64,000 nucleotides of DNA from Dehalococcoidia bacterium (GTDB lineage: Bacteria > Chloroflexota > Dehalococcoidia > Plut-88900). Under the pieces are notes generated by a model that worked only from the letters and a program-made list of their open reading frames with translations, was not told where the DNA came from and made no database searches. The stretch covers positions 2,012,974 to 2,076,973 of the forward strand of contig CBDBLV010000005.1 in assembly GCA_965207225.1 (NCBI GenBank), in the 5' to 3' direction. The position numbers and the translations under genes were made by a program. Shown here piece by piece: positions 5,203 through 31,946 of the stretch (positions are counted from its first letter, which is position 1; every line of letters begins with the position of its first letter).

Positions 5203-5220
5203 GTGAAGGGAGAGAAAGCA

Positions 5221-10639: not shown

Positions 10640-11795
10640 TTGACTTGCTGCACCTCCTAATCGGTTTCCCGACGAAGATGCGTCCGCTATCGGGGTGGGT
10701 CAATTCCAAATTAGCGCTACTGGGTCAGTTTAGAGTTAGCACTAACACAACGCCAACACGGCAGTCCTCGCACGGTCGGGCAGCGGCAAGTCTTTCGCAA
10801 CCAAGCTCGGAGTGCTCAGGGGATTGACGCGCGGCGTCACCGCCTACGTCATCGACCCTGAAGGGGAGTACGCGGACATGGCTCGCGCCGCCGGAGGCAG
10901 GGTGCTGTCTCCCGGAGTGGAAGGCCAGGGCATGAACCCTTTCGTCATCGACCGGGGAGACGACGAGGAGCTGCTCCAGAGGATCGGGAGCCTGAGAAGG
11001 CTCATCGAGGTGATGGTGGGTGAGAGTCTCGGAGCGGAGCGCAGGGCCTCCCTGGACCACGCCCTGGCGGGCTACTACGCCCAGCACCGCGAACGCACAG
11101 GCTTCCGCGATTTCTACAAATACCTGGAAGGGCAGGCCCCGGACATAGCCCACCTGCTGAGGCCCTTCGCCACCGGCAGCCTCCGCAACCTCCTCTCCGA
11201 CGAGGGGGACGACCTGCTGGGGAGCGAAGCACTCGTCACCGTCTTCGACCTGCGTCTCCTCGAACCGGAGCTTAGGCCCGCAGCGGCGATGGTCTGCACC
11301 GAGACGGTGTGGGCGGCGGCCGCCCAGAACCCCAAGCCGAGGCTGCTGGTGGTGGACGAGGTGTGGAGCATCATGCAGCACCCCGAGGGCGCGGCCTTCA
11401 TGGTGTCTATGGCGAAACGCGCCAGGAAACACCGGCTGGGGCTTCAGTTCATCACCCAGGACGTCCAGGACCTTTTGTCCGAGGACTCGTCGAGGACCAT
11501 CACCGGCCATTCGGGGAGGGCGCTTCTCCAGAACGCCGCCTTCAAGCTGCTGTTGCAGCAGGACGCGGCGGCCATAGGCACCGTGGGCGACGCGTTCGAC
11601 CTGCCCGAAGACCTCCAGCGCTGGCTGCTGTCGTGTCCCCGTGGGGACGGACTGTTGCTGGCGAAGGGACACCGCTTCCCCGTCCGCATCGAGGCCACCC
11701 CGGAGGAAACGGAGGTCATCAAGTGGAGACCGGGCGGACACCGACAGAGAGGCGAGAACGCAGAAGAGACCCATACGTAGGGAGGAGTAACAGAA

Positions 11796-14327
11796 ATGAA
11801 ACAGAACCCGATACGCAAACTATTTGGAAGCGACGACAAGACCCCGGCGCTGCTTGCGGTGACGCCGCCGAGGACGGGCGAGCGGACGTTGCTGGGCGTG
11901 GAGAACCTCCTCCAGTCAATCGCGGTGCCTGAGCCCTTCTCTTTGGAGCTTGCCGGGGACATGGACGGCGTGACGCTGATGGCCCGGTGCATCGACGACC
12001 GGGTGGTACGCGGCCAGATCGCCGCCCACTACCCCCAGGCCAGGATAGAGAAGGTGGACCCAAACAACGATCCCTTGCGCCTGGGAGACGGCGAGCAGGC
12101 GTGGTCGATGACGCTCAGGGCCGACGGCCCCGAGTACGTCCCCCTGCGCACCTTCCGGGACGACGACCTCCTCGACCCCGGCTCCGACCCTCTGATCGCC
12201 CTCATGGGCGCGCTGTCGTCCCTCTACGAGGGGGAGCGCGTGGTGGCTCAACTCAAGCTGAACTCCCTCGGCCCCGACTGGTCCCAGCACCACATGGAGA
12301 AGGCCCACAAGCGGCCCGGCCAGGAGCAGCGGGAGCCGTCCTACACCTACCAAACCAAGCCCCTCCAGATGGACGGGGTGACCATGGCCGTCCTCGGCGT
12401 CGGCGCTCTCGCAGCCCTCCAAGGCTACCTGTGGGTGCAGGACGGCGAGACGTGGAAGACGGTGCTGCTTGGCATCGGAACGGCCCTGGGGCTTGGCATC
12501 GGTGGCTGGGCATGGCACCGCTTCAAGAAGGCGAGGAACCGGGTCGAAGACCCCCTGCTCATCAGGGAGAAGGTCTCCCGCATCGCCTTCGACGCCGAGA
12601 TACGGGTCACGGCGATCATGCCGGACGACACGGGGCGCGAGCGGACCGAGGAGCTCATGAGGAGGGTTGCCGCCGCCTACCGGCACTTCGACAACCCGGC
12701 AGGGGCGAGGTTCAAGGTGAGCAAGGTAAGGCCCGTCGCTCCCGCCCCGGAGAACCTGCATCCCACAGGCCCCGGCCTGTTCGGCAGGCGCAGCGTCCTG
12801 GGGGTGCGGGAGGCCGCCTGCCTCTGGCACCCGCCGGGAGCGGGGAACGAGACGCCGTTGGTGGAGCGGTCTGGCGCGCGGGCGCTCAGCCCGTCGGCGA
12901 AGGGAGTCAGGGGCGGTGCGCTGGTGGGCGACACCACGGCGGGTACCAAGAGGGAGATCAGATTCCCCGACGACCTGCTGCGCCGTCACCACCTCTACGT
13001 GGCCCGCACCCGCATGGGCAAGTCCACGCTGATGCACCACGTGGTCGCCCACAAGATGCGGGAGAAGGCGGCGGGCAGGGACGAAGACGCCATCGTCGTC
13101 ATCGACCCCCACACCGACCTGGTGGCGGGCATCCTCGAACACGTCCCGAAGGAGATAGCCGACAGGGTGAGGCTGATAGACCTGTCGGACGCGAGCCGTT
13201 CCCCCGGCGTCAATCTGCTGGACACCCGCATATTCGCAGACCGCGACCGCACCGCCGACTCGGTGGTGCGGGTGGCCAAGGGCCTCTGGGACCAGTGGGG
13301 GCCGAGGATGCAGTCGATCCTGGAACAGACCGTCAAGACGCTGCACGAGGCCAACGAGCAGATGGAGGCCGAGCAGCAGTACACCATCCTCGACGGCCTG
13401 AAGCTGCTCTCGGACGATGAGTTCGCCAAGCAGGTGCGCAAGAGGGTCTCCGACCCCTACCTGCTGGAGTGGTGGGCCAGGGACTTCGGCAAGTGGGGCC
13501 GCCAGTACAAGGCGGAGGCCCTGGCCCCCGTCCAGACCCGTCTCTCCTACTACGCGTCCTCCAAGCGGGCGAGGGCCATCCTCGGGCAGCGCCGCTCCAC
13601 CATCGACCTGAGAAGGACCATCCACGACGGCGGCGTGCTGCTGGTCTCCACCTCCCAGGGAACGGTGGGCAGGGACGTGGCCGCCCTGGTGGGCGCGTCG
13701 CTCCTGAACCTGGTGGACGCCGTGATACGGGAGCAGGGAAGTCTATCTCTCAGGGAACGTCGCGGCGCGCTGGTCGTCGTGGACGAGATGCAGTCCATGC
13801 CCGGCGTGGACTACGAGTCGATGTTGTCGGAGCTTGGGAAGTTCGGAGCGTCCTTCGTGCTGGCGACCCAGAGCCTGGCCAAGCTGGACGACCTCTCCCG
13901 CACCATGCGCGACACCATCCTCGCCAACGTGGGGTGCCTCGCCGTCTTCCAGGTGGCCGGCTCAGACGCCAGGACCCTGGTGTGGGAGCTTGGCAAGGAC
14001 CGGGTGTCCGAGGACGACATCGTGTCCCTGCCCGTGCACCACTGCTACGTCCGCGCCACCGTGGGCACCGAGCGGATGCCCGCCTTCTCGATGGAGGTGC
14101 GCAAGCCTGAGGAAGGAGACCCATCGGTCGCCGACCGCATACGTGCAGCTACGCAAGGCTACACCGTCTCGGCCCGCCAGGGAGACTACGCCGACGCCGA
14201 GGGCCACGAGAAGGTGGACGAATTTCACAAAGGCGTCGAGGCATTGGAGCAGGCCGAACGGGAGGAGAACGACGAGCAGGCGACCGAGAACCACACCGAC
14301 GAAGAGGACGAGGAGGTCGGAGAATGA
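11796..14327 (+). CDS. virD4: Type IV coupling protein (VirD4/TraD-like)
   Basis: ARTRMGKS Walker A, VIDPH, VVDEMQ, LATQS; two internal TM. Confidence 0.85.
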   Translation: MKQNPIRKLFGSDDKTPALLAVTPPRTGERTLLGVENLLQSIAVPEPFSLELAGDMDGVTLMARCIDDRVVRGQIAAHYPQARIEKVDPNNDPLRLGDGEQAWSMTLRADGPEYVPLRTFRDDDLLDPGSDPLIALMGALSSLYEGERVVAQLKLNSLGPDWSQHHMEKAHKRPGQEQREPSYTYQTKPLQMDGVTMAVLGVGALAALQGYLWVQDGETWKTVLLGIGTALGLGIGGWAWHRFKKARNRVEDPLLIREKVSRIAFDAEIRVTAIMPDDTGRERTEELMRRVAAAYRHFDNPAGARFKVSKVRPVAPAPENLHPTGPGLFGRRSVLGVREAACLWHPPGAGNETPLVERSGARALSPSAKGVRGGALVGDTTAGTKREIRFPDDLLRRHHLYVARTRMGKSTLMHHVVAHKMREKAAGRDEDAIVVIDPHTDLVAGILEHVPKEIADRVRLIDLSDASRSPGVNLLDTRIFADRDRTADSVVRVAKGLWDQWGPRMQSILEQTVKTLHEANEQMEAEQQYTILDGLKLLSDDEFAKQVRKRVSDPYLLEWWARDFGKWGRQYKAEALAPVQTRLSYYASSKRARAILGQRRSTIDLRRTIHDGGVLLVSTSQGTVGRDVAALVGASLLNLVDAVIREQGSLSLRERRGALVVVDEMQSMPGVDYESMLSELGKFGASFVLATQSLAKLDDLSRTMRDTILANVGCLAVFQVAGSDARTLVWELGKDRVSEDDIVSLPVHHCYVRATVGTERMPAFSMEVRKPEEGDPSVADRIRAATQGYTVSARQGDYADAEGHEKVDEFHKGVEALEQAEREENDEQATENHTDEEDEEVGE

Positions 14328-15985
14328 GACCCGCGGGACTGGAAGCTCAGATCATCCGCATCCTGGCCGACATGCCCTACCTCAATCGCCGGGAGATGGT
14401 CCCGGTCACGGGCCGGTCCAAGGGCGCGGTCCACGAGGCCGTAGAGAGACTGCAAAATGGCGGCCTCTGCGACTCCGTGCTCCACGCCGTCGATCCCTTT
14501 TCCCCTTCCCGCAGGTTCCACCTCACCGGGGCGGGGCTGCGCAGGCTTGCAGATGAGGACGGGATTTCGCCGGACAACCTGGTGCGTACACACCCCCTCT
14601 CCGCCGAGTGGCGGCGAAGCCTGATGGAGCGCATGGACGCCCTGGCTTCCATATACCACGTCGCATCTCTCGCTTCCGACGTTGCCTACCCCCTGCGTTT
14701 CCGCTGGTACCGCTCATCCAAGCTGGACGCGGGTATAGAACTTCCCGACGGCAGGACCGTCGGCATCGTGAGGCAGGGACTCACCGCCGACCGCTCGGTC
14801 TTCGCCCAGCGCCTCTGGCGACTGAAGGACGAACCCATGCCCGGAGTCGTCCTCGTCCTCACGATGGACGCCGTCCGTCTCAGGCACGCCCGCAGGATGC
14901 TCTCGACCACAGACGTTCCGTCCCTCCTGGCCGTCGAACGCGAGACGGTCATGGCCGACGTAGACGCCCCGATCTGGACTCCGGCCCAGGTCCACGCAGC
15001 CGTGAGCCTGCGCTATTCGTTGGACAGGACCGACCCCCGCGGCGCGTTTCCGGGGGAGCCGCAGCCCGGACTGGCGTCGGTCCCTGCCGACCTGCCCGTC
15101 ATGGGAACGGTAGCCGACATGGCCGACCACATGCTGCCCGTGACGCTCAGACCCGCCGAGAAGCGCGCCCTCGACCTGGTTTTCGACTGGCCCTGGATCG
15201 CCCTCGGCGAACTCGCCGGTCTGTTGGGCGTCTCGCCCCAGAGGGCTTCCCAGATCGTCAATCCACTGGAGGGCTTCAGCCTCGTCGTCAGGCCCCGCGA
15301 AGCGGAGGGACGGCTGGCCCTCACCGACCGGGGACTGGCCCTCCTCGCCCGCAGGGACAGGACCTCGGTGGCGGCGGCGAGGAGGAGATTGAGCGTCGCC
15401 CCGGAGGACGCCAAAGGGCCTTTCGAGTGGCGCAACCTCACCGGCAGCAGGAGCCGCCAGCTTCTCAGGAACATCGAGCACACCGAGGCCGTCCACGTCT
15501 TCCTGTCCGCGCTTGCGGCCCAGGCCCGGCACCTGGGCTGGGAGATAGCGCAGCTCGACCCGCCCAGGAGGGCGTCCCGCCACTTCCGCCACGACGAACG
15601 GATGCGCGCCGTCTACCCCGACGCCTTCGGCGTCCTGCGCAGGGGCGAAGAGACGTGGGCCTTCTTCCTGGAGTGGGAGCGAAGGGCCGTTCGGCCCTCG
15701 ACGATGGCGACGCGGCTCGCCCCCTATCTGCGCTACTACTCGTCCCACAGGCCCACCGACGACCACGGGGCCAGACCCGCCGTTCTCATCGTCTTCGACG
15801 ACGACATCGCCGCCACCCACTTCCTGCGCGTGGCGAGGGAGCGGATGCAGGCCAGCCGGGTCACGGTCCCCCTGTGGGTCTCCCACAAAGAAGCCATCGA
15901 CTCCCTGGGACCGCTGGGACGCGCCTGGCGCACCCCGGACGCCGCCTGGGAGCCGCCCCAGTCCCTGCCGACGGAAGCGAAATGA
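14324..15985 (+). CDS. Replication-relaxation family relaxase with duplicated architecture
   Basis: YPDAFG...FFLEWER motif after a wHTH; degenerate N-terminal repeat; downstream of the coupling protein. Confidence 0.75.
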   Translation: MRPAGLEAQIIRILADMPYLNRREMVPVTGRSKGAVHEAVERLQNGGLCDSVLHAVDPFSPSRRFHLTGAGLRRLADEDGISPDNLVRTHPLSAEWRRSLMERMDALASIYHVASLASDVAYPLRFRWYRSSKLDAGIELPDGRTVGIVRQGLTADRSVFAQRLWRLKDEPMPGVVLVLTMDAVRLRHARRMLSTTDVPSLLAVERETVMADVDAPIWTPAQVHAAVSLRYSLDRTDPRGAFPGEPQPGLASVPADLPVMGTVADMADHMLPVTLRPAEKRALDLVFDWPWIALGELAGLLGVSPQRASQIVNPLEGFSLVVRPREAEGRLALTDRGLALLARRDRTSVAAARRRLSVAPEDAKGPFEWRNLTGSRSRQLLRNIEHTEAVHVFLSALAAQARHLGWEIAQLDPPRRASRHFRHDERMRAVYPDAFGVLRRGEETWAFFLEWERRAVRPSTMATRLAPYLRYYSSHRPTDDHGARPAVLIVFDDDIAATHFLRVARERMQASRVTVPLWVSHKEAIDSLGPLGRAWRTPDAAWEPPQSLPTEAK

Positions 15986-16307
15986 ACGACGCAGGGAGCG
16001 TCGCGAAAACTCCCGCTCAATACCCGATAGGAGATGGAAAGCCGATGCGTTCACCGGATAACGATATAGCAAGAGGCCCCCGGAGGAGCGGAGGACGGAG
16101 CGCCGTCCGGCTCGACGCGGCGGCCCTGGGAGACGGCTCACTTCGGTGATCACCTCCCGGAACCGGCCCGCCGGGGTCGATACAGACAGACCCGGTCCCA
16201 TGTCGAAGTCGGCGCGTGGGGAGCGACCGCCCTCCGGTCGCATCCGCCGCCGGATGCACATGGCCTTGGGAACAACAACCCAAAGCTTTATGACATGGAG
16301 GATAGAC

Positions 16308-16598
16308 ATGACCAACATCGATCACATCGACGGATGGAGCGAGATGGAGCCCCTTCAGGGCGCCGACATGCCCGAGGACTTCCCCCAGCGGCTCGTGCGC
16401 CTCAAGGAGGCCAGCGGCCTCTCCTGGCGCGGCCTGTGCAGGGTCACCGGCATCGACTACAAGCTGCTGCGAAGGTGGCTCAAGGGCTGGGCGCCCAGCG
16501 GAGGCTCCATGCTCACCCTGGTCATCTTCGCCAACCGCATCGGATGCCTTCCGATCCTCCTGGGGGAGGAGCTACGGATGACCCACTTCAGGAGCTAG
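16308..16598 (+). CDS. XRE-family HTH protein
   Basis: FPQRLVRLKEASGLSWRGLCR; GGAGG RBS. Confidence 0.75.
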   Translation: MTNIDHIDGWSEMEPLQGADMPEDFPQRLVRLKEASGLSWRGLCRVTGIDYKLLRRWLKGWAPSGGSMLTLVIFANRIGCLPILLGEELRMTHFRS

Positions 16599-16764
16599 CC
16601 GGCACCCCCCGCCGGCGCCCTAACCGGCGCATCGGCGGCGCGGCGGGGTAGGACACCACAACGCCGCCGGGCGCTCGCACCCATCCGTCCGTGCCCGGCG
16701 GCCACCCAATACACCTGTAACGAGAGGCCAGCGGCCCAACGAACCGCCGCTGAGATTAGGCAAC

Positions 16765-16983
16765 ATGAAAGACACCAATAGAGAAGATACGAGGAACCGG
16801 CAAAAGAAGAGGCCGGGGAGGGATGCTCCCGAGTCATCCTCCGACAGGCCGGTGGAGTCCTATACTCCTCAGCAGCGGAGGACGATACGCAAGGGGCTGC
16901 GCATCCTGGCCAAGGTCGCCGTCCGCGCCCACATGCGCAGGAACGCGGCTCACTCAGAGGATGACGGCGAGGGCAGGCGGTGA
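16765..16983 (+). CDS. Small basic protein (possible recombination accessory factor)
   Basis: 72 aa ORF upstream of the TA pair and integrase; function inferred from position only. Confidence 0.5.
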   Translation: MKDTNREDTRNRQKKRPGRDAPESSSDRPVESYTPQQRRTIRKGLRILAKVAVRAHMRRNAAHSEDDGEGRR

Positions 16984-17079
16984 ACGTCCCGCCCAACCTT
17001 GTCCCCGGCAGACTCGTTGGAGATGGCCGCGTGAAGCTAGCATCTTGGCATAGCACGAAAGCCGTGCTATTATGTACTT

Positions 17080-17373
17080 ATGATTGTCTCATTCAGAGAC
17101 GGCGGTACAGAGGACATCTTCAACGGGCAATCCACTCAAGCGGCCCTGCGGGCATGTCCCATGCCGATATGGGGAGTGGCTCATCGAAAGCTTGACCAGA
17201 TCGATTCCGCCTCCGTTCTGGGAGACCTCAGAATACCTCCCGGCAACCGCCTGGAACGGCTGGCCGGAGATCGAAGCGGGCAACACAGTATTCGCGTCAA
17301 CGACAGGTATCGAATCTGCTTCACGTGGACACCTGCCGGACCCGCCGACGTCGAAATCACCGACTATCACTGA
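17080..17373 (+). CDS. higB: HigB/RelE-family toxin
   Basis: LRIPPGNRLERLAGDRSGQHSIRVNDRYRICF. Confidence 0.92.
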   Translation: MIVSFRDGGTEDIFNGQSTQAALRACPMPIWGVAHRKLDQIDSASVLGDLRIPPGNRLERLAGDRSGQHSIRVNDRYRICFTWTPAGPADVEITDYH

Positions 17374-17387
17374 AGAGGAGAATGAGC

Positions 17388-17747
17388 ATGGTACGCATTC
17401 CCACCGATCGAGAGCCTACGCATCCGGGCGAGATGCTTCTGACGGAGTTCCTGCTGCCCCTCGGAATGACTCAGCGCGACCTGTCCAATGCCATTCACGT
17501 GCCCTATCAGAGGGTCAACGAAGTCGTCCGAGGGAAGCGGGGGGTCACGCCAAGCACCGCCCTGAGGCTCTCTAGGTTCTTCGGCACTTCGCCCGGCTTT
17601 TGGATGAACCTGCAACTCCGTTGGGACCTCTACCACGCCGAGCGTTCCGAGGCTGAACAGATCGAGGGCATCCTTCCGCGTGAAATGGTCAGCGCGCTTG
17701 GGGAAGACACGGGTTCGATGACGACGATGCCGGGTGTTGCAGGCTAG
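17388..17747 (+). CDS. higA: HigA antitoxin
   Basis: PTHPGEML...FWMNLQLRWDL. Confidence 0.92.
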   Translation: MVRIPTDREPTHPGEMLLTEFLLPLGMTQRDLSNAIHVPYQRVNEVVRGKRGVTPSTALRLSRFFGTSPGFWMNLQLRWDLYHAERSEAEQIEGILPREMVSALGEDTGSMTTMPGVAG

Positions 17748-17791
17748 TAGTGGCCCACGGGAACGACAGGAAACAGGAGGAGGACTCACAG

Positions 17792-19723
17792 ATGAACAAT
17801 AGAAGCGACTACACCCCCGTGGCCCTCTACGCCAGGGTCTCCAGCGACAGACAGGACGTGGACCTGTCCGTGGCCGCACAGCTGCGGGCGCTCAGGGAAT
17901 ACGCCCATAAGAACGACTACGTGGTCGTCCGCGAGTACGTGGACGAGGCCGAGAGCGGGCGCGTCGCCGACCGCCCGGAGTTCCGCAAGATGATCGACGA
18001 GGCCGCCAAGCCCGAGGCCCCGTTTAGAGAAATCCTTGTCTGGAAATTTAGTAGATTCACCAGAAAGCGCGAGCACGCCGTCGCCTTCAAGTCCATGCTC
18101 AGGCGAAAAGGCGTCCGCGTCGTCTCCATCACCGAGCAGGCCGACGACACCGCCACCGGCAGGCTCCTTGAGGGAATCATCGAGTCGGTCGATGAGTTTT
18201 ACTCGGAAAATCTTGCGGAAGAGGTTCGCCGTGGGATGCGGGAGGCCGCTTCCAGAGGCTTCTGGGTCGCCAGCCGGACGCCCTACGGCTACAACCGCGT
18301 CATGGTGCAGGACGGAGCCAAGAAGCGGCCCACACTGGAGATCGACCCTGACACTGCTCCCGTCGTCAAGCGCATCTTCGACATGGCCGAGTCGGCCACC
18401 GGGATGACCGAAATCACCCGCACACTCAACTCAGAGGGCATCGCCAGCGCCACCGGCAAGCTCTGGTCCAAGAACGGCGTCCACTTCATCCTCAGAAACG
18501 AGGTCTACACGGGCACGCTGCTCTGGGGCACTACAGGGAAGGTCAAGTCCGACCCCGTACGCATAGAGAAGGCGTTCCCCGCCGTCGTCTCCAAGGCCCA
18601 ATTCAACCGCGTCAAGCGGCTCATGCGCTCCCGCGCGCCGAAGAGGACGCACCCTCGCAGGGTGGGAAGCTCCTACCTGCTCAGCGGGCTGGTCAGGTGC
18701 AAGTCCTGCAACAGGGCGCTCTCAGGCCAGGACGCCAAGAGCGGCCAGTTCGCCTACTACGTCTGCCAGTCCATCATGAAGCGGGGCAAGAACGCTTGCA
18801 CGACCCCCAGGCTCAACGCACGACGCTTCGAGGAGATGGTGGTGGAGAGGATACGGGAGAACGTCCTCACCGAGTCCAACATCACCGAACTGGTCAAGAT
18901 CGTGGACGAGGAGATGGATGGGGTGGCAGCGGAGCAGCGGCAGAAGCTGGAGACCATCGAGGCCGAGCTTGATGAGGTCAAGCGCAAGCTGGGCCGCGTC
19001 TGGCACCTGGTGGAGAACACCGACCTCGACATGGCCGACGCCTCGGAACGCATCAGGGAGCACCGGGAGCGTCAACAGTGCCTTGAGGACTCGGCGGCCG
19101 AGGCCAGGACCATCCTCTCCCAGCGCAGGGAGGTTTTGGACGACGTGGAAACCATCGCCACCTATGCCCAGGACATGAGCGAGTTCCTGAAGGAGAGCGA
19201 ACTGACCGAGCGCAGGGCCTTCATCGAGTCTTTCGTCAAGGAGATCGTCGTCATGCCCGACAACGCCCTCCTCCGGTACACCATCCCCATGCCTCAGGAT
19301 GGACCGGTAGGAGGGAAAACCGCCGAGGAGATGGACCTGAACGGCTCGGTTCTGTCTACCGTCAAAAATGGTGGGCCGGACTGGACGAAATCAAGAACCG
19401 ATGCCGACTCCCGCCTCACTCCGTCCCTGGGCATGGGCACCGTGTACGTCAGCGTCGCCTCGTCTTCCACCACCTCGATAGCCTCCACGAAGTTGCGGAT
19501 GAGGGCCTTGCGTTCGGGGATCGTCCCCTCCCTCAGGAACTCCCGGAAGTCCGCCACGTACTCCGCTATCTCCTCCGTGTCGGGAAGGGCAACCCGCCGC
19601 CGCTCAAGCTGGGTCTCGGCGTCCTCTCTCGCAGCCTCAAGCTGCTCCTCACGGTGCCGCAGGGACATGATGCGGGGCGACAGCACCTCCAAGGTCAGGT
19701 CGCTGGTCTCGATGGCCTCGTAG
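17792..19723 (+). CDS. Large serine recombinase A; residues after ~19374 are read-through into the antisense of integrase B
   Basis: YARVSS catalytic motif, recombinase domain, LLSGLVRCKSC Zn ribbon, coiled coil. Confidence 0.93.
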   Translation: MNNRSDYTPVALYARVSSDRQDVDLSVAAQLRALREYAHKNDYVVVREYVDEAESGRVADRPEFRKMIDEAAKPEAPFREILVWKFSRFTRKREHAVAFKSMLRRKGVRVVSITEQADDTATGRLLEGIIESVDEFYSENLAEEVRRGMREAASRGFWVASRTPYGYNRVMVQDGAKKRPTLEIDPDTAPVVKRIFDMAESATGMTEITRTLNSEGIASATGKLWSKNGVHFILRNEVYTGTLLWGTTGKVKSDPVRIEKAFPAVVSKAQFNRVKRLMRSRAPKRTHPRRVGSSYLLSGLVRCKSCNRALSGQDAKSGQFAYYVCQSIMKRGKNACTTPRLNARRFEEMVVERIRENVLTESNITELVKIVDEEMDGVAAEQRQKLETIEAELDEVKRKLGRVWHLVENTDLDMADASERIREHRERQQCLEDSAAEARTILSQRREVLDDVETIATYAQDMSEFLKESELTERRAFIESFVKEIVVMPDNALLRYTIPMPQDGPVGGKTAEEMDLNGSVLSTVKNGGPDWTKSRTDADSRLTPSLGMGTVYVSVASSSTTSIASTKLRMRALRSGIVPSLRNSRKSATYSAISSVSGRATRRRSSWVSASSLAASSCSSRCRRDMMRGDSTSKVRSLVSMAS

Positions 19724-20940
19724 AGCTTCCCCAGACGCCTCTGCACGTCCGATAGCTCCGCCTCGACTGACTCCAGCCTGCCGGACAGCTCTCCAGCCAT
19801 GGCGTCTATCTCCTCCGCCACCAGTTGCACCAGCTCCACGATGGTCTCCTCGGTCAGGATGCGCTCCCGTATCTTCTCCACCACGAAGTCCTCGACCTTG
19901 GGGGCGTTCAGGTAGCGGGCGCTGCACGTCCCCGCTCCCTCCCTGAACAGCGTCCCGCAGATGTAGTAGGCGAACTGCCCGCTCTTGGCTCCCTGGGCCG
20001 AGTAGGGCCTGCCGCACACTCCGCACTTCAGCAGCCCGCTCAGCAGGTACTGGCTCCCCACTCTACCGGGCCTCTGCACCTTCGGCGCACGCTCGCTCAT
20101 CGCCTGCTGCACCTCGTCGAACAGCTCCCGCGACACCAGGGCAGGCCACGCTCCCTCCACCCGCACCGGGTCCTGGGCCTTCTCGTTCTTGCCCTTGAGT
20201 CCCCATACGGCTGTTCCCGTATAGGCTTCGTTCCTCAGCACGTAGTGGAGTCCGCCCTTGTACCAGCGCTTCCCCCGGTTGGTGACGCCCCGGTCGTTCA
20301 GCTCCCTACACAGCTCCTTGAGGCCGTGACCGCTCAGGGACTTCTCGAATATCTCCTTCACTACAGGAGCGGTGGCCGGGTCAACCTCAAGTGAGGGGCG
20401 CTCCTTCGCCCCGTCCTGTACCTTGATCTTCCTGTAGCCGAAGGGGGCCTTGGAGCCGAGGAAGAAGCCTCTCGACGCCGCTTCCCTCATCCCCCTGACA
20501 ACCTCTTCCGCAAGACTCTCCGAATAGAATTCATCCACCGACTCGATGATGCCCTCCAGCAGCCTGCCGGTGACGGTGTCGTCGGCCTGCTCGGTGATGG
20601 AGATCACCCTGATGCCCTTGCGCCTAAGCTGGGACTTGAACGCGACGGCGTGCTCCCGCTTGCGGGTGAAGCGCGAGAATTTCCACACCAAGATGACCTC
20701 AAAAGGAGCCTGGGGCTTGGAGCCCTCCTCGATCATCTCCCGGAACTGGGGCCGGTCGGCGACCCTGCCGCTCTCGGCCTCGTCCACGTACTCCCGTGTC
20801 ACGGAGTAGCCGTTGGCCTTCGCATATTCCTTGAGCGCCCGCAGCTGGGCGGACACGGACAGGTCCACGTCCTGCCTGTCGCTGGACACCCTGGCGTAGA
20901 GTGCCGCCGCCGTCAGCGGCTGTAGGTGCTGCTTCTTCAT
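19294..20940 (-). CDS. Large serine recombinase B, paralogue of A
   Basis: YARVSS, LLSGLLKCGVC; 3' end crosses the att centre. Confidence 0.93.
   Translation of the reverse strand: MKKQHLQPLTAAALYARVSSDRQDVDLSVSAQLRALKEYAKANGYSVTREYVDEAESGRVADRPQFREMIEEGSKPQAPFEVILVWKFSRFTRKREHAVAFKSQLRRKGIRVISITEQADDTVTGRLLEGIIESVDEFYSESLAEEVVRGMREAASRGFFLGSKAPFGYRKIKVQDGAKERPSLEVDPATAPVVKEIFEKSLSGHGLKELCRELNDRGVTNRGKRWYKGGLHYVLRNEAYTGTAVWGLKGKNEKAQDPVRVEGAWPALVSRELFDEVQQAMSERAPKVQRPGRVGSQYLLSGLLKCGVCGRPYSAQGAKSGQFAYYICGTLFREGAGTCSARYLNAPKVEDFVVEKIRERILTEETIVELVQLVAEEIDAMAGELSGRLESVEAELSDVQRRLGKLYEAIETSDLTLEVLSPRIMSLRHREEQLEAAREDAETQLERRRVALPDTEEIAEYVADFREFLREGTIPERKALIRNFVEAIEVVEDEATLTYTVPMPRDGVRRESASVLDFVQSGPPFLTVDRTEPFRSISSAVFPPTGPS
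19346..19401. other. att junction between elements A and B
   Basis: Symmetric TCGGTTCT...AGAACCGA and CGTC...GACG around the central GG. Confidence 0.85.
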
Positions 20941-20983
20941 GTCGTCCTCCTCTGCAATCTTCTGTACTTAGGGGAGGCCAGCC

Positions 20984-22030
20984 TTAGGCCAGCCCCCAGG
21001 GGTAAGATTCACCTTTGACATATGAAATGGAACCGTCCAACCTCACCGTGATTACGGCGTCGAAGGCCGATAGGTCGCACCCATCCCAGGCTGCGGACTC
21101 CGTGCCACCGATAGAATCTACGATGTCCACTAGTAAGAGGCAGAAGCGAGAGTATTCTGGGCATTCGGCTCGCTTACCTGCTTTGTCGTTGACCTCCTCC
21201 TGTAAAACTTCACCGACCTTGTCGTTCGTTATGAAGTTCCGGAAGACATTGTTCCGTCCCCTAGCGTCCAGTTCTCGATTCACCTCCACATAAGAGACCA
21301 TGCCAGATTCTACGCGTGCAACCTCAACTGCCCATTCCTGCCCTTCCACGAGGAGTTCAAAGTCGGGAAAGCTATTCCCGAGAGGTTCGTATCGATATTT
21401 CAGGTCTTCTTGTGAGATGCCGAAACGCGAACATAGGTCAACACGGAGTGAATGGAGAGCGAAGTGCTCCATGTCTTCCTTGGAAGCATACGCGGGCGAG
21501 AATCGAAGCCCGTCCAACCGGTCGCTTTCTACGAGACGCTGTACGGCAGGGTCCGTTGGGTTGACCAGGCCGATGACGATGCTGTCTTGACTCATGTATT
21601 CGTCCTCGAAGAGGTCTACCCTGAACGCGAAGGTTTCCTTCATGTGGTGAACGCTCAATAGTTTTCGATTGTCGGTAGACAAGGGAAGATGAGACAGGAT
21701 TGAGGTCAACTTCTCCCGCTTCATTGGGTGATAACGGATGAGTACGCTATCGCATCCATGGACCCAGTCCATGTCATTCTGGGAGATGATGTGTGACACC
21801 TCTTCCCTCAGAAATCCAAGAGTCAGTTTTCTCCCGTTGGCTGGGGTATGTGGGACAGACTCGGAGAGATCTTTGGATTCTAAGGCGGCCCTCAAAGAGT
21901 TCGACGCACGCCGGTACTCATTGACGGTGCTTCCCTGTTTACCCGGAATCAAGACAAACTGATACCAGGGCAACTTCTGGTATTCAGGGTCTTCCTTCTT
22001 CACATACTTGGTCGGAAAGGCGGATGTCAT
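20984..22030 (-). CDS. Hypothetical protein with C-terminal PD-(D/E)XK-like motif
   Basis: FPDFELL...WAVEVAR; lower GC than its flanks. Confidence 0.6.
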   Translation of the reverse strand: MTSAFPTKYVKKEDPEYQKLPWYQFVLIPGKQGSTVNEYRRASNSLRAALESKDLSESVPHTPANGRKLTLGFLREEVSHIISQNDMDWVHGCDSVLIRYHPMKREKLTSILSHLPLSTDNRKLLSVHHMKETFAFRVDLFEDEYMSQDSIVIGLVNPTDPAVQRLVESDRLDGLRFSPAYASKEDMEHFALHSLRVDLCSRFGISQEDLKYRYEPLGNSFPDFELLVEGQEWAVEVARVESGMVSYVEVNRELDARGRNNVFRNFITNDKVGEVLQEEVNDKAGKRAECPEYSRFCLLLVDIVDSIGGTESAAWDGCDLSAFDAVITVRLDGSISYVKGESYPWGLA

Positions 22031-22076
22031 GAAGTTTTCCTAATCTCGCTGGGGGTTCCGAATCGTGGTTCGCAAC

Positions 22077-22409
22077 TTAACTCACCAGGACGCCTATCGT
22101 GGTGCCAAGGGCGCTGGCGATGCGTACCAGGGCCGAGGCCGATCCGGGTTTCAGCCCGCGCTCAATCTCGGAGAGGTACCCTGAGGCAAGGCCGGTCCTC
22201 TCGGACAACTCCCTCAGGGTCATGCCCTGGTGGTTCCGAAGCGCCTGGATGGGACCCTTCCCCCGCATGATGTCGAGAGCGACCTCGTGAGGGACGCGCA
22301 CGCCGTCGTCGGCGTCCTGGGCAGCCAGCATGTCCTCAAGCTGGCTGTTGCGCTCGATGAGAGCGTCGTACTCCCTTCGAGTCAAGGTTACGGTCTGTTC
22401 GCTAGTCAT
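22077..22409 (-). CDS. XRE HTH antitoxin
   Basis: ALRNHQGMTLRELSERTGLASGYLSEIERG; overlaps the toxin stop. Confidence 0.85.
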   Translation of the reverse strand: MTSEQTVTLTRREYDALIERNSQLEDMLAAQDADDGVRVPHEVALDIMRGKGPIQALRNHQGMTLRELSERTGLASGYLSEIERGLKPGSASALVRIASALGTTIGVLVS

Positions 22410-22659
22410 AAGCCTCCCTCCTGTGTCGAACTCTCAGGATTATGAGGGTTGAGGGCTCGCCATGTTCGGTGGCGAAGATGACGCGGTGTTGGCCGACCCG
22501 CAACCGGCTGTAGTCACTGCCGGTCAGCGCAGTCACCTGTCTGGCGAGAGAGGCGGGGTTCTCGGCATATTGCTCAACCTTGCCGATGATGCGCTCCCTG
22601 TCCCGCGCGGCGAGACGGCGCATATCCCTGATGGCCCGCGTCCCCCATTCGATTTGCAT
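22402..22659 (-). CDS. RelE/ParE-family toxin
   Basis: RLRVGQHRVIF...VRHRREAY. Confidence 0.85.
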   Translation of the reverse strand: MQIEWGTRAIRDMRRLAARDRERIIGKVEQYAENPASLARQVTALTGSDYSRLRVGQHRVIFATEHGEPSTLIILRVRHRREAYD

Positions 22660-22888
22660 TCCCTCATACACACCCTCTATATTCGCAAATAGAGAGCAGT
22701 GAGTCAAGGGCGCACCCACGCGGGCAGCGTCTCTAGTTTCAGCTAGAGTGATTTCCGAAAGCCGCCTCATCCGCCACTTTCGCAGGACGGTCAGCAACCG
22801 GCGCAGTGCTTGAATCTCGTATTTCGCTCGCTCTGGTTGCATACCCTCACCCCAGGCAGCATTCTCCCTTCAAACTGAGACACTACCC

Positions 22889-23323
22889 TCACGCGACCAG
22901 CCGCCACGTGAGCAGACCAACGACCACGAGCAGCACGACAACGGCCAGGCCGAGCCTGACGGCCAACCGCCTCATTCGTCTGCGGGCATCGCGCTCCTTC
23001 TCGTACTTCTCCTCCATCTCCTCAAGCGCCTGCCGGTCGGCGGCTGCGGCGTACACCGCCTCGTCCCGCTCCCGCTCCAACGCCTGCGCCCGCCGATCCA
23101 GCTCCAGCAGCCTCCGCCCAAGCTTCCCCTCACGTGCCAGAGCCCGGCGCAGCAGCTCCTCGTCGCTCACCCGGTCCGGCCCCTCCATCCGCACGTTGAC
23201 CCTCCGGCCCTCCCTGCGCACCTCGACCTCTCCCCGCCGGATCATCCGGTCGAGGGTCGAGATGGAGACCTCCATCTCCCGCGCCGCCTCCGCCTTCGCC
23301 ACCCAGCGCACCCGCTCAGCCAT
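22889..23323 (-). CDS. HTH, coiled-coil and C-terminal TM protein
   Basis: AEAAREMEVSISTLDRMIRRG; hydrophobic tail. Confidence 0.7.
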   Translation of the reverse strand: MAERVRWVAKAEAAREMEVSISTLDRMIRRGEVEVRREGRRVNVRMEGPDRVSDEELLRRALAREGKLGRRLLELDRRAQALERERDEAVYAAAADRQALEEMEEKYEKERDARRRMRRLAVRLGLAVVVLLVVVGLLTWRLVA

Positions 23324-23756
23324 CGCTCCCGTCCTCGCCCTGCCGCCTGCGCCGCCGCCACCGGCTGAACAGGCGCAGCCCACCGCCCTCGGCGTCGTCT
23401 TCCTGCTCCCGCGCCGCCTCCAGGGCCTCCACGCGCTCCGTCAGGTCATCCACGAGGTTCCTGAGATCATCCACCTCTCTGATCGCCTGCCGCATCCTCC
23501 CCTCCAGCCTGTCCAGGGGCGTCGTCCTCTCCCCATCGGGATCGTCCAGGCCGGCCATGAACCGCTGCACGGCCAGGGTCATCTTGCTCGTCAACCGCTC
23601 TTTGCTCAGGGCCAGGGCCACCGTCTTCCGGTTCACACCCAGCAGGGCCGCCGTCCTGCGCTGACCCTCCCGCTGGACGAGGTACTCCACGACCCACTTC
23701 TGGTCGGGTCGCCCGTCTACGGCCTTCGATTTCATCTTCGACTTCCCAGAGGTCAT
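23316..23756 (-). CDS. HTH regulator, paralogue of 1866..2723
   Basis: GQRRTAALLGVNRKTVALAL plus coiled coil. Confidence 0.7.
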   Translation of the reverse strand: MTSGKSKMKSKAVDGRPDQKWVVEYLVQREGQRRTAALLGVNRKTVALALSKERLTSKMTLAVQRFMAGLDDPDGERTTPLDRLEGRMRQAIREVDDLRNLVDDLTERVEALEAAREQEDDAEGGGLRLFSRWRRRRRQGEDGSDG

Positions 23757-24286
23757 CTTCGTCCTCTACCGAGATGGGCCGTTTCTGCAATTTTCGGTGG
23801 AACCGGCCCTTGACAGCGACCGGTCACATTTTTCGGCCAAACCCCCGAAATGTTGCATAAATCCAAACCTGCGTGGCCCGAAATGTCCGCTCCTGACCAT
23901 GCCCCCATTTCGCGTCATGCACCCCCACCTCAATTCCTGCAATTTCCGGTGGGCCGCCCTGGGCCAAAGACGCCGCCGACGCGCCGGTTTTGCTCCTCAT
24001 AGACGCTTCAGACCCGCATCCGTACCTACATCCCCCATGATCGGCTGACCGGTCAGGGTGGTAAGAGTGCAATTCCGGCGTCTCCGGAGCGCGCCCTAAC
24101 TTTAGCACAGCTTCTCCCCAACCTGCATTATTTGCCGTTGACCGGTCGAGGACGTTGCAGCCCGTTTCGTAGCTGAATCAGGGGAATATGACCGGTCTCG
24201 GCTATTTCGAGGCCCCGCCGGAGGTACAACTTGTACCGTTTTGCGCCCCCCAGACGCCAGGGAGGGCAGACAGCGTTGCATCGACG

Positions 24287-26116
24287 CTATCTATGTCCCC
24301 TCCTATTGGACGCCTCTACAGGACGGGTGGGACGCATCCGGTGGTACAGCGGGTCGTAGACGTAATCGCTCAGCTGGGACAGCCTCAGCCGGGGGGAGGA
24401 CGGCGCCCACAGGGGGCGCCAGGACTCCCCCAGTATCCCCGTGGTGCTAAGCACAGGGATGCAGGACACCAGGACGGGCAGCGACATCCGGTGCATCCGG
24501 GCGGCGGTGCTCATGTAGGTCTCCTCCACCTCCTCACTGTCCACGACGAACAGCGTGACCGGGTACGGCGGCAGGTCCTCTTTGTGCTCGTTGGACCAGT
24601 AGTAGTCTTCGTAGGGGTCCAGTCGTGCCATCACTCCCCTGGGGTGACGGGCTCTGAGTTCGTGCTCAAGGTAGAAGGGCACAGGATGGCCCTCGGCGAC
24701 AAGATGCCCAACGGCGTCGGGGGCGATGGCGGAGCGGCCCCAGTTGTAGGCCCGGTCGGACCTGGCGGTGGGGACAAGCCATACAAGCTCACTGTCGGGA
24801 TCGGAACGGGTCTCAGATGCAAGCTGCGAGAGGAACCAGGTGATGCCGTCCGTGTGCCTCGTCTGCCTCGCCCACGTCTCGATACGGTGGCCTACGTGCC
24901 GAGGCCGTCCCTCTTTGTCCGTGGTGCGCTCCGTGCTCCAGATACCCCGCGTGGTGGGCAGCTCGGCCCGGTCCCGGTGGGTCACGTAGCGTATCCCCTC
25001 GTCGGACAGCGTGTAGCGAACCTCGCCCCGTTTGCCCCGGCGCTCCACGAGACCCCAGGTCTTCACCAGGCCGTGCATCATCTGGCTGACCCTTCCCTCG
25101 GAGACGCCCAGCCAGGTCGCCAGGTGCTCGCGGGGGATCATCGGGTGGTCGGTGATGAGGTCCAGCGTGCGCTTCTCAGCGGGGCTGAGGCCGAAGGCCG
25201 GCGCAGCCTGCGTCATCCGCTCAGGATCGGGCAGGGAAGCTCGCTTACGCTCCGGCGACATGGTGAGGGGTCTTCGTCTCCTGCCAGCCGTGCCCCGGGA
25301 GATGACATCTTCCAACGTGTGGAAGACGTTCCCAACCCACCCCGTGGTCTCCTGCCAGACCCGGCGGTTTCGTCGTTCTAGGGCGGTCCTGGACTCTACG
25401 GCAACGAAGCAGTCACGCAGATAGACCTGCTCGCAGAACCTCCCCGTCTGCCTCCGCTCCCAGACGCTGGGAACCAGGCTGAGAATGACATCGGGGCGGC
25501 GGCTGGAGTCGTAGTGGGCCAAGGCCCGTAGCCGGTCGCGGAGGGAGCGCCTGCGTAGGGCCAGGCCCTGGCGCACCACGCCGAAGTCCCGCCCGTCGTG
25601 GAGGGTGATGGTGGCGTCGAACCGGCCCCTGCGGTGGAACTCCACGCGGGACCGCAGGCCGTCCGAGCCGGGGGACATCGTGGCGGCGAGACGGTAGACG
25701 GCGGCCACGGCGTCCATCCTGCGCAGGAGCAGCGTCAGCCACTCCCTGGACATGGGGTAGGCCCGCACGAAGTCCGAAAGCGTGTCGTAGTCCAGCAAGT
25801 CGGCTGTCTCACGTATGCCCTTCGCCGTCAGGTAGTATCGTGCGCTTGACGGCAGGTGGACGGTGCCGTGGGTGACTCTCCCGACGATGCCATCGTCCAG
25901 CAGGCCGGTCAGGGCGCGATGGACGGTCGCGTGCGGCTCGCCCAGGACAAGCGCCAGCTCCGTCGATTCGACGAAGGGCATCCGGGCAAGTGCGTCGAGC
26001 AGCTGGTGGTCAGTAAGGACCATAGCCCCACGGTAGCGATTGAGCGTCCTGGTGGGCAACTGGGACGTGTCAGCGCCGCGCTTGGCACCGACAGACTGCT
26101 GAGAAGCCTGACTCAC
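24287..26116 (-). CDS. Replication-relaxation family relaxase B (start may be 26023)
   Basis: Colinear paralogue of 14324..15985; APDAVG...FYLEHE. Confidence 0.75.
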   Translation of the reverse strand: MSQASQQSVGAKRGADTSQLPTRTLNRYRGAMVLTDHQLLDALARMPFVESTELALVLGEPHATVHRALTGLLDDGIVGRVTHGTVHLPSSARYYLTAKGIRETADLLDYDTLSDFVRAYPMSREWLTLLLRRMDAVAAVYRLAATMSPGSDGLRSRVEFHRRGRFDATITLHDGRDFGVVRQGLALRRRSLRDRLRALAHYDSSRRPDVILSLVPSVWERRQTGRFCEQVYLRDCFVAVESRTALERRNRRVWQETTGWVGNVFHTLEDVISRGTAGRRRRPLTMSPERKRASLPDPERMTQAAPAFGLSPAEKRTLDLITDHPMIPREHLATWLGVSEGRVSQMMHGLVKTWGLVERRGKRGEVRYTLSDEGIRYVTHRDRAELPTTRGIWSTERTTDKEGRPRHVGHRIETWARQTRHTDGITWFLSQLASETRSDPDSELVWLVPTARSDRAYNWGRSAIAPDAVGHLVAEGHPVPFYLEHELRARHPRGVMARLDPYEDYYWSNEHKEDLPPYPVTLFVVDSEEVEETYMSTAARMHRMSLPVLVSCIPVLSTTGILGESWRPLWAPSSPRLRLSQLSDYVYDPLYHRMRPTRPVEASNRRGHR

Positions 26117-26236
26117 AAGGAGTCACCTATGGCTAGTCGTGCTCGTAGCCAGCCCGCGCATGTCGTCTACGCGTCTCTTAGTTGAAGGCTTCTAGACGTT
26201 GAATCACCGCTACTTGAAGTATATACTTCCGAGTAG

Positions 26237-26443
26237 TTGGAAGGGAGGAGCAGCTTGAAAGGTACTGAAAATGGACAACGTGGAACTTTCCTGGTGACGG
26301 CGTATAGGTGTCGTTGTGGACACGAGTGGGTTCCAAAGAAACTGCGCAGCGCGGAACGTCCACGGGTTTGCCCAAAGTGCAAGAGCGCCAACTGGGACAG
26401 GCCCTATCAATTTCGGAGGGGAGGTGCTCCTAGCCAATCATGA
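26237..26443 (+). CDS. Small Zn-ribbon protein (start may be 26255)
   Basis: CRCGHEW...CPKCKSANW; overlaps the MTase start. Confidence 0.6.
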   Translation: MEGRSSLKGTENGQRGTFLVTAYRCRCGHEWVPKKLRSAERPRVCPKCKSANWDRPYQFRRGGAPSQS

Positions 26444-27958: not shown

Positions 27959-28160
27959 ACATATTGGATCAGGTGCCGAAGGTGGATGACCGAAGATGTC
28001 GCCGCGCTTTACGCCCAAGCCTAAGTTCGCAGCCATGACTTCGTGCACCAAGTTTAGGCCACCTTCGTCTCTCCTGGAATCTGGAAGCAACATCCGCCCG
28101 ACAATGGGCATCCATCCACTTCCACCTAGCCTTGCCACTATCGGACCAGGAGCCGCCCCA

Positions 28161-30284: not shown

Positions 30285-30314
30285 TTAGACCTCCAACCTG
30301 AACCTCAACTGAAA

Positions 30315-30365
30315 GGTTCTTGATTTTGTCAAGTCTGGTGGACCGATGCTTTCTGGAACGGCCCT
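30315..30365. other. att junction between element B and herA
   Basis: GGTTCTTGATTTTGTCAAGTCTGGT-GG followed by herA sequence. Confidence 0.85.
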
Positions 30366-31808: not shown

Positions 31809-31946
31809 CGCTTAAGCTCGAACACTAGGCAAGGGAATCACCCCCGAAAGCTTCTGAGGGCAACCCTATCGTCTGCGCTAGGGGAAAGAGACTAGCCAGC
31901 CAGCTTCTATCCCTGCCAAGACCTTGCCTCTTCAGTTCTTGTTGTA

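Follow-up and report, generated by a model that had tools for sequence, protein, structure and literature searches.

A tail-to-tail pair of large serine recombinase genes in a Dehalococcoidia genome as a probable hybrid attachment site formed by accretion at tRNA genes

A stretch of 64,000 nucleotides at the end of contig C5 of a Dehalococcoidia bacterium (assembly GCA_965207225.1, contig CBDBLV010000005.1, positions 2,012,974 to 2,076,973; hereafter the window) carries two convergent genes for large serine recombinases (LSRs), here termed A and B, whose reading frames run through a shared palindromic site into one another. Comparison with the remainder of this genome (five contigs, 4.03 Mb) and with other genomes of the same order suggests that the locus is most probably a hybrid attachment (att) site between two side-by-side integrative elements, brought together by accretion at tRNA genes. 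In general terms, such tail-to-tail pairs are likely to be a frequent side effect of two related families of LSR-bearing elements accreting at tRNA genes, to which an inversion would have been added at the window copy.

Anatomy of the tail-to-tail junction

The open reading frames (ORFs) of A and B (Table 1) overlap by 430 nt and, as observed in the initial annotation, neither is closed by a stop codon before the centre of the att site. The ORF of A reads ...NGSVLSTVKNGG, with its element-derived coding sequence ending within a GGG codon at 19373-19375, and then continues for 115 codons antisense to B (19375-19723) as far as the stop codon at 19721-19723. That of B reads ...SASVLDFVQSGP, with its element-derived sequence ending within a CCA codon at 19372-19374, followed by 25 codons antisense to A (19294-19371) and a stop codon at 19294-19296. 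The approximate antisense lengths of 115 and 25 residues that had been estimated for the two genes are thus reproduced by the ORF calls. The true start of A likely lies at the ATG at position 17792, given that database homologs sharing the 115-aa tail comprise 643 aa. The third codon positions of A and B coincide through the frame offset and the G+C content at these positions (GC3) is 0.86 in each gene, which accounts for the length of the antisense frames.

Both proteins contain Resolvase, Recombinase and Zn_ribbon_recom domains in a Pfam scan (PF00239 resolvase domain; e-value: 6e-34 in A, 7e-33 in B; PF07508 and PF13408 matched in A as well as in B) and share 58% amino acid identity over 532 aa, with the similarity ceasing at the junction (...SVLSTVKNGGP in A; ...SVLDFVQSGPP in B). 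The residues Y15, A16, R17, V18, S19, S20, R22 and Q23 and four cysteines (C306, C309, C328 and C339) are invariant across 44 aligned sequences, and the nucleophile is presumably the serine of the Y-x-R-x-S motif. An AlphaFold2 model of B (44 sequences; mean predicted local distance difference test score: 62) is poor, with long helices of low confidence at residues 364-449, where the coiled coil of the zinc ribbon is expected, and with residues 521-548 scoring below 50; it allows only the statement that no fold is predicted for the tail. No terminators or promoters were detected in a scan of positions 19000-20000. The predicted RNA folds at the junction (z-scores of -3.0 and -1.8 for the plus and minus strands, respectively) reflect the palindromic nature of the site, and nothing is concluded from them.

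The junction is symmetric, with both arms made up of integrase coding sequence, as had been proposed. It forms an imperfect palindrome of 52 bp at 19348-19399, in which GGTTC, 20 nt, GG, 20 nt and GAACC follow one another and to which the two 3' ends contribute one arm each. Its centre, as placed by symmetry, is the dinucleotide at 19373-19374, which is GG in the reading of A and CC in that of B, in line with the first reading of the site. The 9-bp core TGGTGGGCC has the layout TGGT[GG]GCC, the reverse complement of the tRNA end GGC[CC]ACCA. On the left side, homology to other genomic copies ceases at 19377-19386, and on the right side homology to lone B genes begins at 19369-19372, so that the points of exchange bracket the core. 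On sequence grounds, this structure goes far beyond what chance would be expected to produce.

Four long arms recur at such sites, namely alpha (3' end of the A gene), FEL-alpha (a non-genic copy of alpha), beta (3' end of the B gene) and beta2 (a non-genic copy of beta), while a subfamily of A-type elements, A2, has a separate arm, alpha2. GGTTC is separated from the centre by 20 nt in all five arms, as against 14 nt in the tRNA arm, where GGTTC constitutes the T-loop, and in a pseudo-site within a herA gene described below. The inner 12 nt are alike among the arms (GTCAAAAATGGT and GTCCAGTCCGGC, with GTCCAGGATGGC in tRNA-Ile), 15 of the inner 18 nt of beta are shared with the 3' end of tRNA-Ile, and a 17-nt stretch of alpha, GTTCTGTCTACCGTCAA, is identical in 12 of the 13 A-type genes compared. 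The block at positions -20 to -11 of the arms is invariant in both families; the flanking blocks already show a column conservation of 0.76-0.98, and this conservation lends weak support to the putative half-sites. In the attB half-sites of LSRs, the outer motif lies 4-5 bp nearer to the centre than in attP half-sites (PMC11722253). The spacings of 20 and 14 nt follow this P-type and B-type half-site logic of serine integrases, with a shift of 6 nt in this case. As such, each type of element would have a palindromic attP of its own, composed of alpha and alpha'(FEL) in the A-type and of beta and beta2' in the B-type, and the A/B junction would comprise two P-type arms, one from each of two different elements.

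Recurrence in the genome and in databases

The genome yields 44 matches to B, which represent 33 genes, 20 of them A-like and 13 B-like, with full-length copies sharing 62-98% (A-like) and 81-94% (B-like) amino acid identity with the window proteins in tblastn comparisons. The convergent A/B pair occurs seven times (C3:24850, C3:58980, C3:86855, C4:735689, C4:873342, C5:1962021 and the window), with a post-crossover tail of 115 aa on A in all seven, and the A and B proteins of the other six pairs are 78-95% and 85-92% identical, respectively, to those of the window. At one further site (C4:892742), the DNA that follows the core of an A gene is not a tRNA gene, and the tail comprises 2 aa.

More than 4,000 relatives of each family were recovered from the databases at an e-value of at most 1e-50 (among 8,000 candidates scored), and the few that are named carry the label of metagenome-assembled genomes of Chloroflexi. 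The list of A homologs is skewed towards paired forms, since the query contained the long tail. Among the 120 best homologs of B, the tail corresponds to an antisense A gene in 73 and to FEL-alpha in 22, while a short arm is found in 12, beta2' in four and other sequence in the remaining nine. In the short-arm tails the motif ..RT (AGAACC) lies two codons closer, which represents B-type spacing, and the beta2' tails may correspond to the attP of B itself or to B-B junctions. The rare oddity that the initial annotation had seen in the junction is therefore contradicted by the seven copies in this genome, by the arrays in relatives described below and by the prevalence of the paired form among the best B homologs.

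The 3' ends of tRNA genes as probable targets

Seven A-like genes that are unpaired with B run antisense into the 3' ends of tRNA genes (Ile-gat, Ala-tgc, Lys-ctt, Val-tac, Gln-ttg, Val-gac and Met-cat), and the central dinucleotide, by symmetry, corresponds to tRNA positions 71-72. All 49 tRNA genes of the genome encode CCA and 11 end in CCACCA. Elements occupy 6/11 of the latter, versus 1/38 of the others, and this sole occupied gene without CCACCA, a tRNA-Gln gene, is occupied by an A-like gene that is divergent and whose core differs. Both families would recombine with the 3' ends of tRNA genes that end in ...CC-A-CCA, near positions 71-72, with the T-arm and acceptor strand of the tRNA acting as a short B-type half-site.

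Among eleven other genomes of the order, 32 beta2 sites are present in nine. Twenty-five of these were read, of which four directly abut a tRNA gene, two abut FEL-alpha', six abut an alpha2'-like arm and 13 abut other DNA. In the window, scans for tRNA genes and Rfam families gave no match, so that the host arm beside beta2 is not a tRNA; it proved to be HerA coding sequence.

Element arrays and the formation of the junction

The elements form co-oriented arrays, the longest of which (approximately 78 kb; C5:1912002-1990340) has the order tRNA-Met(C5:1912002)/A/A2/B/A/B. Further arrays in this genome are tRNA-Val(gac)/A/B, tRNA-Val(tac)/A2/B and, on contig C3, B/A../B/A/B/A/host. The A-type integrase is always proximal to the tRNA gene and antisense to it, and the B-type integrase is always located at the far end of its element, pointing away from the tRNA gene and running in the same direction as the latter. 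Each B/A boundary is consequently a tail-to-tail pair, and each A/B boundary a FEL-alpha/beta2' junction. In relatives, the order tRNA-Val(tac)/B element (26 kb)/host is found in genome G004, tRNA-Val(tac)/B (19 kb)/A (18 kb)/host, with a matching A/B pair, in G010, and tRNA-Val(cac)/B/A2-like pair in G002. The presence of B-type elements at tRNA genes in relatives, together with the arrays, argues that one set of tRNA ends is used by both families and that the pair is a product of accretion. Several co-oriented elements are present per target, each with its own integrase and att arms, as is characteristic of site-specific accretion. The proposal that two sub-families share one att chemistry with opposite polarity is broadly supported, as the core and the tRNA targets are the same and the integrase genes lie on opposite sides.

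According to the mechanism that we propose, the attP of both families would lie inside the 3' end of the integrase ORF, with the last codons of the gene itself forming the long P-type half-site. The crossover dinucleotide would fall within a glycine codon in A and a proline codon in B, and the stop codon would be supplied by whichever DNA lies past the crossover. Integration would leave the tRNA arm intact, allowing further elements to enter the same tRNA gene and giving rise to co-oriented arrays, with an incoming element integrating into the already occupied tRNA site (attP x hybrid site). The initial annotation had invoked a non-canonical event for the formation of the junction, such as a reaction between attP and attR or excision between two neighbouring elements. 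The two P-type arms do indeed point beyond a plain attP x attB reaction and would fit one between attP and an occupied hybrid site, while excision between neighbours is unneeded. For arrays with the order tRNA/B/A, entry of B into a tRNA/alpha' site is favoured over entry of A into a beta/host site, because only the tRNA-proximal junction retains the conserved B-type arm. This order of insertion, like the assignment of each protein to its site, is inferred.

A number of points weigh against accretion at tRNA genes by both families. None of the 12 beta2 arms in this genome abuts a tRNA gene and ten abut alpha-type arms, the tRNA-adjacent cases deriving only from relatives, and B might thus prefer the att sites of A-type elements. 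No empty target site was recovered, with the host-side arms differing among genomes, and the tRNA/B/A arrays could equally be obtained by an A-type element entering beta/host. To our knowledge, efficient recombination between attP and a hybrid site is not to be expected of LSRs, and the building of arrays would therefore call for a relaxed rule or for rare events. All of the evidence is comparative: the anatomy of the junction, its recurrence, the occupancy of tRNA genes, the arrays in relatives and the split HerA are read directly from the genomes, and recombination by A or B is deduced from breakpoints. The classes of sites and of protein tails were set by motif rules of our own making (regular expressions), those of the protein tails not from DNA. 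Finally, no contig assembled from public short reads bridges the junction by at least 31 nt on each side, leaving the window copy dependent on the assembly.

Alternative explanations

The beta2 arms that abut non-genic alpha-type arms in this genome are also what would be expected if B-type elements were mobilisable hitch-hikers that home to the alpha arms of A-type elements, in which case the pair would represent attL or attR of a B-type element inside the attP of A or inside an A-A junction. In agreement with this, 8/13 arms at the ends of B genes abut alpha arms in this genome, and 8/25 of the beta2 sites read in relatives abut alpha' or alpha2'-like arms. However, the four beta2 sites that directly abut tRNA genes in relatives, one of them belonging to an element with plain host DNA on its distal side, do not fit homing of this kind, and the B-type element E7 of the window entered HerA, where no alpha arm exists. 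Furthermore, the inner part of beta mimics the tRNA 3' end, and alpha/beta2' junctions would equally be produced by the later entry of an A-type element at tRNA/beta2'. We therefore consider homing to alpha arms unlikely. A stricter rule, whereby B would always land on the distal arm of A, lost weight once tRNA-adjacent B-type elements had been found in relatives. Even less probable is the explanation that the pair is the true attP of one composite element with two LSRs, comparable to CcrA/CcrB, with A acting on alpha and B on beta and with the lone genes marking the ends of integrated composites. Its two long P-type arms do give the junction an attP-like appearance, the majority of the best B homologs occur in this pairing, and units with the structure tRNA/<-A ... 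B->/host exist (C5:130504-165921 and C5:1036580-1069888, for example). Yet in such units A and B are separated by an internal alpha/beta2' junction, with a separate palindromic pair of arms for either half, while A-type elements end alone in FEL-alpha/host sites (e.g., C3:106893, C2:88265 and C5:2003423), a B-type element stands alone at a tRNA gene in G004 and another sat alone in HerA. The beta/beta2' tails in four of the 120 B homologs, which would be an attP for B alone, likewise do not fit a composite.

An assembly chimera, in which two repeated integrase genes were falsely joined, must also be weighed, as the region is highly repeated and fragments in public data. Contigs from public short-read runs labelled as sponge or marine metagenome contain parts of the window but are interrupted at 19365-19377; even the longest contig segment to cross the centre (19105-19395) extends only 21 nt past it, and the public reads neither confirm nor refute the window copy of the junction. 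The assembly itself, on the other hand, contains seven diverged copies of the junction, the identical type of junction is found in the genomes G010 and G002, and 73 independent database proteins imply it. The B genes at the ends of the inverted segment described below are, moreover, approximately 89% identical in DNA sequence, too unlike for confusion by an assembler. A chimera is thus so improbable as to be scarcely tenable, and we retain accretion at tRNA genes as the origin of the pair. In two of the public runs (X15 and X17), the summed contig depth is 230-9,000 over positions 17000-21000, versus 10-17 over the unique positions 21008-22000; integrase ends seem to be present there in many more copies, strains or organisms, depth of this kind not being equivalent to copy number.

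A split HerA gene and a proposed 42-kb inversion

The far end of the B-type element E7 interrupts a HerA gene, of which the 76 N-terminal codons remain in the window. The remainder (residues 88-588 of 8wiv_A; e-value: 1e-150) is fused in frame to a lone B gene (C5:1988772-1990340, plus strand) located 53 kb away, outside the window. The fusion ORF (C5:1988772-1991945) encodes 1,057 aa, comprising a complete B-type serine recombinase followed by HerA from approximately residue 88 onwards. The junction between the HerA N-terminus and beta2' reads ..ATCGGTCCA/CCAGAC (GGTCCA/CCAGAC) and that between beta and the HerA C-terminus reads ..CCGGCCCA/GTGAGT (GGCCCA/GTGAGT), from which it follows that a B-type element entered HerA at GGT[CC]A, with the crossover within CCA. 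The entry site has CGTTC at B-type spacing. An earlier idea, that the DNA to the left of the A-type element E6 continues the HerA frame and that a single composite insertion was involved, was rejected, as the translation of this DNA is unlike HerA and the true continuation lies at C5:1990340.

In the simplest history, the ancestral arrangement would have consisted of an array with the order tRNA-Met/A/A2/B/A/B(E5)/A(E6)/host together with SIR2-HerA-N/B(E7)/HerA-C, located 13 kb beyond it on the opposite strand. An inversion of the segment C5:~1990340-2032346 (42 kb) between two beta-bearing sites would have converted these into E5-beta/HerA-C at one end and, at the other, the convergent pair in which A of E6 reads through alpha/beta' into B of E7. 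In line with such an inversion, within C5:1.91-2.05 Mb cores of the opposite orientation are found only at two sites inside the inverted segment and at one in HerA. The exchange may have taken place at the cores, mediated by an LSR, or else between the B genes through homologous recombination, in which case the junction would be an array boundary of the ordinary kind that moved with the segment. The SIR2-HerA locus is absent from all 11 other genomes of the order, and in this genome the sequence indicates that a defence pair of the SIR2-HerA type has been inactivated through insertion of a mobile element. Reversed cores are also seen in a second group of sites (C4:664769-735689), which includes the other A(+)/B(-) pair and may mark another rearrangement.

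C-terminal tails and the excised state

The tail past the crossover codon comprises 16-40 aa at tRNA junctions, 115 aa in A genes at B junctions and 15-22 aa across FEL-alpha. The "borrowing" of stop codons by one integrase from the other, as first described, does not hold as a property of the pair; it is a passive outcome of the stopless ORFs, which occurs also at the tRNA junctions and in the inferred attP state. When read from the core in the LSR frame, the FEL-alpha arms of 15 sites encode GGP[IEK]LT..RT[VI]FE[LM][WR][LM]G.., and a stop codon is reached within 15-22 codons. Over the seven codons starting from T of RT, comparison of eight distinct sequences gave 67 synonymous and 56 non-synonymous differences between codon pairs in the LSR frame, versus 0-48 synonymous and 83-131 non-synonymous in the other five frames, with the pairs not being independent of one another. 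This suggests that the tail in the attP state is real coding sequence that is replaced on integration, as in Mx8. In the excised circle, the A-type LSR would end in this conserved peptide, whose variation in the LSR frame consists mainly of synonymous or conservative substitutions. We regard it as rather doubtful, if conceivable, that the C-terminal peptide reports the state of the element, that exchange of the tail alters activity or directionality (as reported for Mx8 Int), that the terminator-less convergent overlap silences both integrases of an array and locks older elements in place, and that LSRs natively target the class of tRNA 3' ends.

Gene content of the two elements and their surroundings

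The A-type element E6 encodes a pilin of the type IV secretion system (T4SS_pilin), a TrwB-like protein (weak match), a Replic_Relax protein and the LSR, with most of its ORFs lacking a Pfam match, and copies that are 91-98% identical are present on contigs C1, C4 and C5. From this gene content, A-type elements look like integrative and conjugative elements (ICEs). The DUF87/VirB4-like ATPase gene, which in the window is cut by an insertion sequence of the IS21 family, is uninterrupted in the copy on contig C4 (frame of 770 aa). No T4SS family was found by Pfam among the nine ORFs called in 19375-30339, missing Pfam matches being weak evidence, and the smaller B-type elements appear to be mobilisable, with no transfer apparatus detected. 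Toxin-antitoxin-like genes lie near both integrases, with a HigB-like toxin beside A and a helix-turn-helix (HTH; Xre) and ParE-like toxin pair in the B-type element (22077-22842), and these are probably maintenance modules.

Table 1. Positions of the principal features in the window
Feature	Position	Strand	Remarks
Right-hand part of A-type ICE-like element E6	1-19374	+	Starts outside the window at C5:~2003432; reaches the X/alpha'(FEL) site C5:2003423
T4SS pilin in E6	4918-5202		Pfam
IS21-family insertion (istA/istB) within E6	8502-10747	-	Cuts DUF87/VirB4-like ATPase gene
Coupling-protein-like ORF in E6	11796-14327		
Replic_Relax ORF in E6	14324-15985		Pfam
HigB toxin in E6	17080-17373		
ORF A, A-type LSR	17750-19723	+	657 aa counted from GTG
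alpha half-site, putative long P-type arm	19348-19372	+	GGTTC + 20 nt; encodes SVLSTVKNG
Core TGGTGGGCC	19369-19377	+	9 bp; reverse complement of tRNA 3' end GGCCCACCA
ORF B, B-type LSR	19294-20940	-	548 aa
beta half-site, putative long P-type arm	19375-19399	-	GGTTC + 20 nt; encodes SVLDFVQSG
B-type element E7	19375-30339	-	11 kb; LSR B, HTH and ParE pair, DNA methylase, GmrSD-like protein
Replic_Relax ORF in E7	24287-26116		
beta2 half-site (GGTTC + 20 nt) and core TGGTGGACC	30315-30344	+	Other end of E7
HerA, 76 N-terminal codons	30339-30566	-	Cut by E7; aligns to residues 10-78 of PDB 8wiv_A (e-value: 6e-16)
SIR2-like gene	30559-31215	-	Upstream of the broken HerA gene

A run of defence-like genes extends over positions 26440-35489. 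It begins within the B-type element with an N6/N4 DNA methylase and a GmrSD-like protein (Excalibur and fn3 domains), and continues beyond it with the SIR2-like gene and then with a 1,180-aa SNF2/ResIII helicase containing a NOV_C domain. The window contains two copies (2.25 kb) of the IS21-family insertion sequence, one within E6 and the other at 55102-57350, each with istA (rve domain) and istB. Further copies at C2:8092, C5:160809, C5:1833482 and C5:1981100 match them with 99.6-100% identity, and the copy within E6 is accompanied by a 4-bp duplication (CAAC). An ISXO2-like (IS1595 family) transposase ORF is located at 47080-48027. A repeated block at 57367-62429, which includes a 385-aa multi-HTH ORF (60070-61227), is 74-95% identical to at least eight places flanking A-type elements, such as C4:717010-718256 and C5:2011426-2012665. 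This suggests that the block is part of a further element near the end of the contig.

Comparison with known systems

Accretion in tandem has been described before, as have islands driven by an LSR next to a tRNA-like gene. The closest likeness is to the ssrA genomic islands of Dehalococcoides, in which the serine recombinase DsiB is associated with tandem islands at the transfer-messenger RNA (tmRNA) gene (McMurdie et al. 2011, PMC3146451). The hosts belong to the same group at the phylum level, as the labels of the A homologs indicate, and in both cases a serine recombinase gene (product of approximately 540 aa) lies beside attL on the strand opposite to the tRNA-like gene, integration occurs into the 3' region of the latter, and islands are stacked in tandem downstream (PMC3146451). 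The DsiB islands, however, have a single tmRNA target, with the insertion inferred to lie in the T-loop and a direct repeat of 20 bp, whereas at least seven tRNA genes are targeted here and the crossover lies near positions 71-72 (PMC3146451). The available text of that account describes neither ORFs that run through the crossover, nor a second family with the opposite placement, nor tail-to-tail pairs (PMC3146451). A small second recombinase resembling DsiA was sought and no other ORF with a resolvase domain lies beside A or B in the window. The likeness to the ssrA island module is one of mechanism, not of membership.

Site-specific accretion has been described for ICEs, integrative and mobilisable elements and cis-mobilisable elements (PMC5704250) and for Phage-ICE tandems (PMC13651849), in the accounts available mostly with tyrosine integrases at tRNA genes or at the 3' ends of other genes, in contrast to the present arrays, where both partners are LSRs. 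These arrays now hold up to five elements, and held six before the inversion. An attP inside the int gene is known from phage Mx8 (PMC6070905), and integrases termed "suicidal" are known from SSV-type viruses (PMC7253208). As in these systems, the att site lies within the integrase ORF and integration supplies a new 3' end and C-terminus (PMC6070905, PMC7253208); replacement of the 3' end of the ORF, as in Mx8, is what is seen at the present sites. Unlike those tyrosine recombinases, the enzymes here are serine recombinases, the exchange is limited to the final 17-25 codons, so that the mid-way splitting of the gene known from SSV does not occur, and the antisense of another integrase can form the new tail. 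The proteins share their domain set with the LSRs of phiC31, Bxb1 and SPbeta, which act on imperfect palindromes of approximately 50 bp in attP and on a shorter attB, with a 2-bp crossover and with the outer motif nearer to the centre in B-type half-sites, by 4-5 bp against the 6 nt found here (PMC11722253). The resolvase catalytic domain, the Recombinase domain and zinc ribbon, and imperfect inverted-repeat att sites with differing P and B spacing are all present. A and B depart from the canonical phage LSRs, as far as the latter are described in that source, in having a family of tRNA ends as target instead of one unique locus, in the overlap of attP with the integrase ORF and in that no directionality factor was identified here. 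Within the main texts of the open-access literature covered, we found no description of an attP inside an LSR ORF with exchange of the tail on integration, of two LSR families with opposite gene placement on one core, or of overlapping integrase pairs of that origin, and the Dehalococcoides tmRNA case was the only one found of serine integrases using tRNA-type 3' ends.

Implications

According to a database paper from 2014, in its available text, serine integrases were not known to target the 3' ends of tRNA genes (PMC4383910). The loci described here point to a family of serine integrases that probably does so, and accretion would explain the presence of 33 integrases in one symbiont genome, as well as arrays of up to 78 kb. 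For annotation, it follows that the "recombinase family proteins" of 643-657 aa in this clade carry approximately 115 read-through residues that do not belong to the enzyme. Since the sites can be read from the genome, with P-type arms in the integrase ORF and B-type arms in the T-arm and acceptor strand of the tRNA, they provide pairs of attP and attB for tests of the rules of LSR recombination, hybrid sites included. The 42-kb inversion and the broken SIR2-HerA defence system furthermore suggest that these att sites may drive rearrangement of the chromosome.

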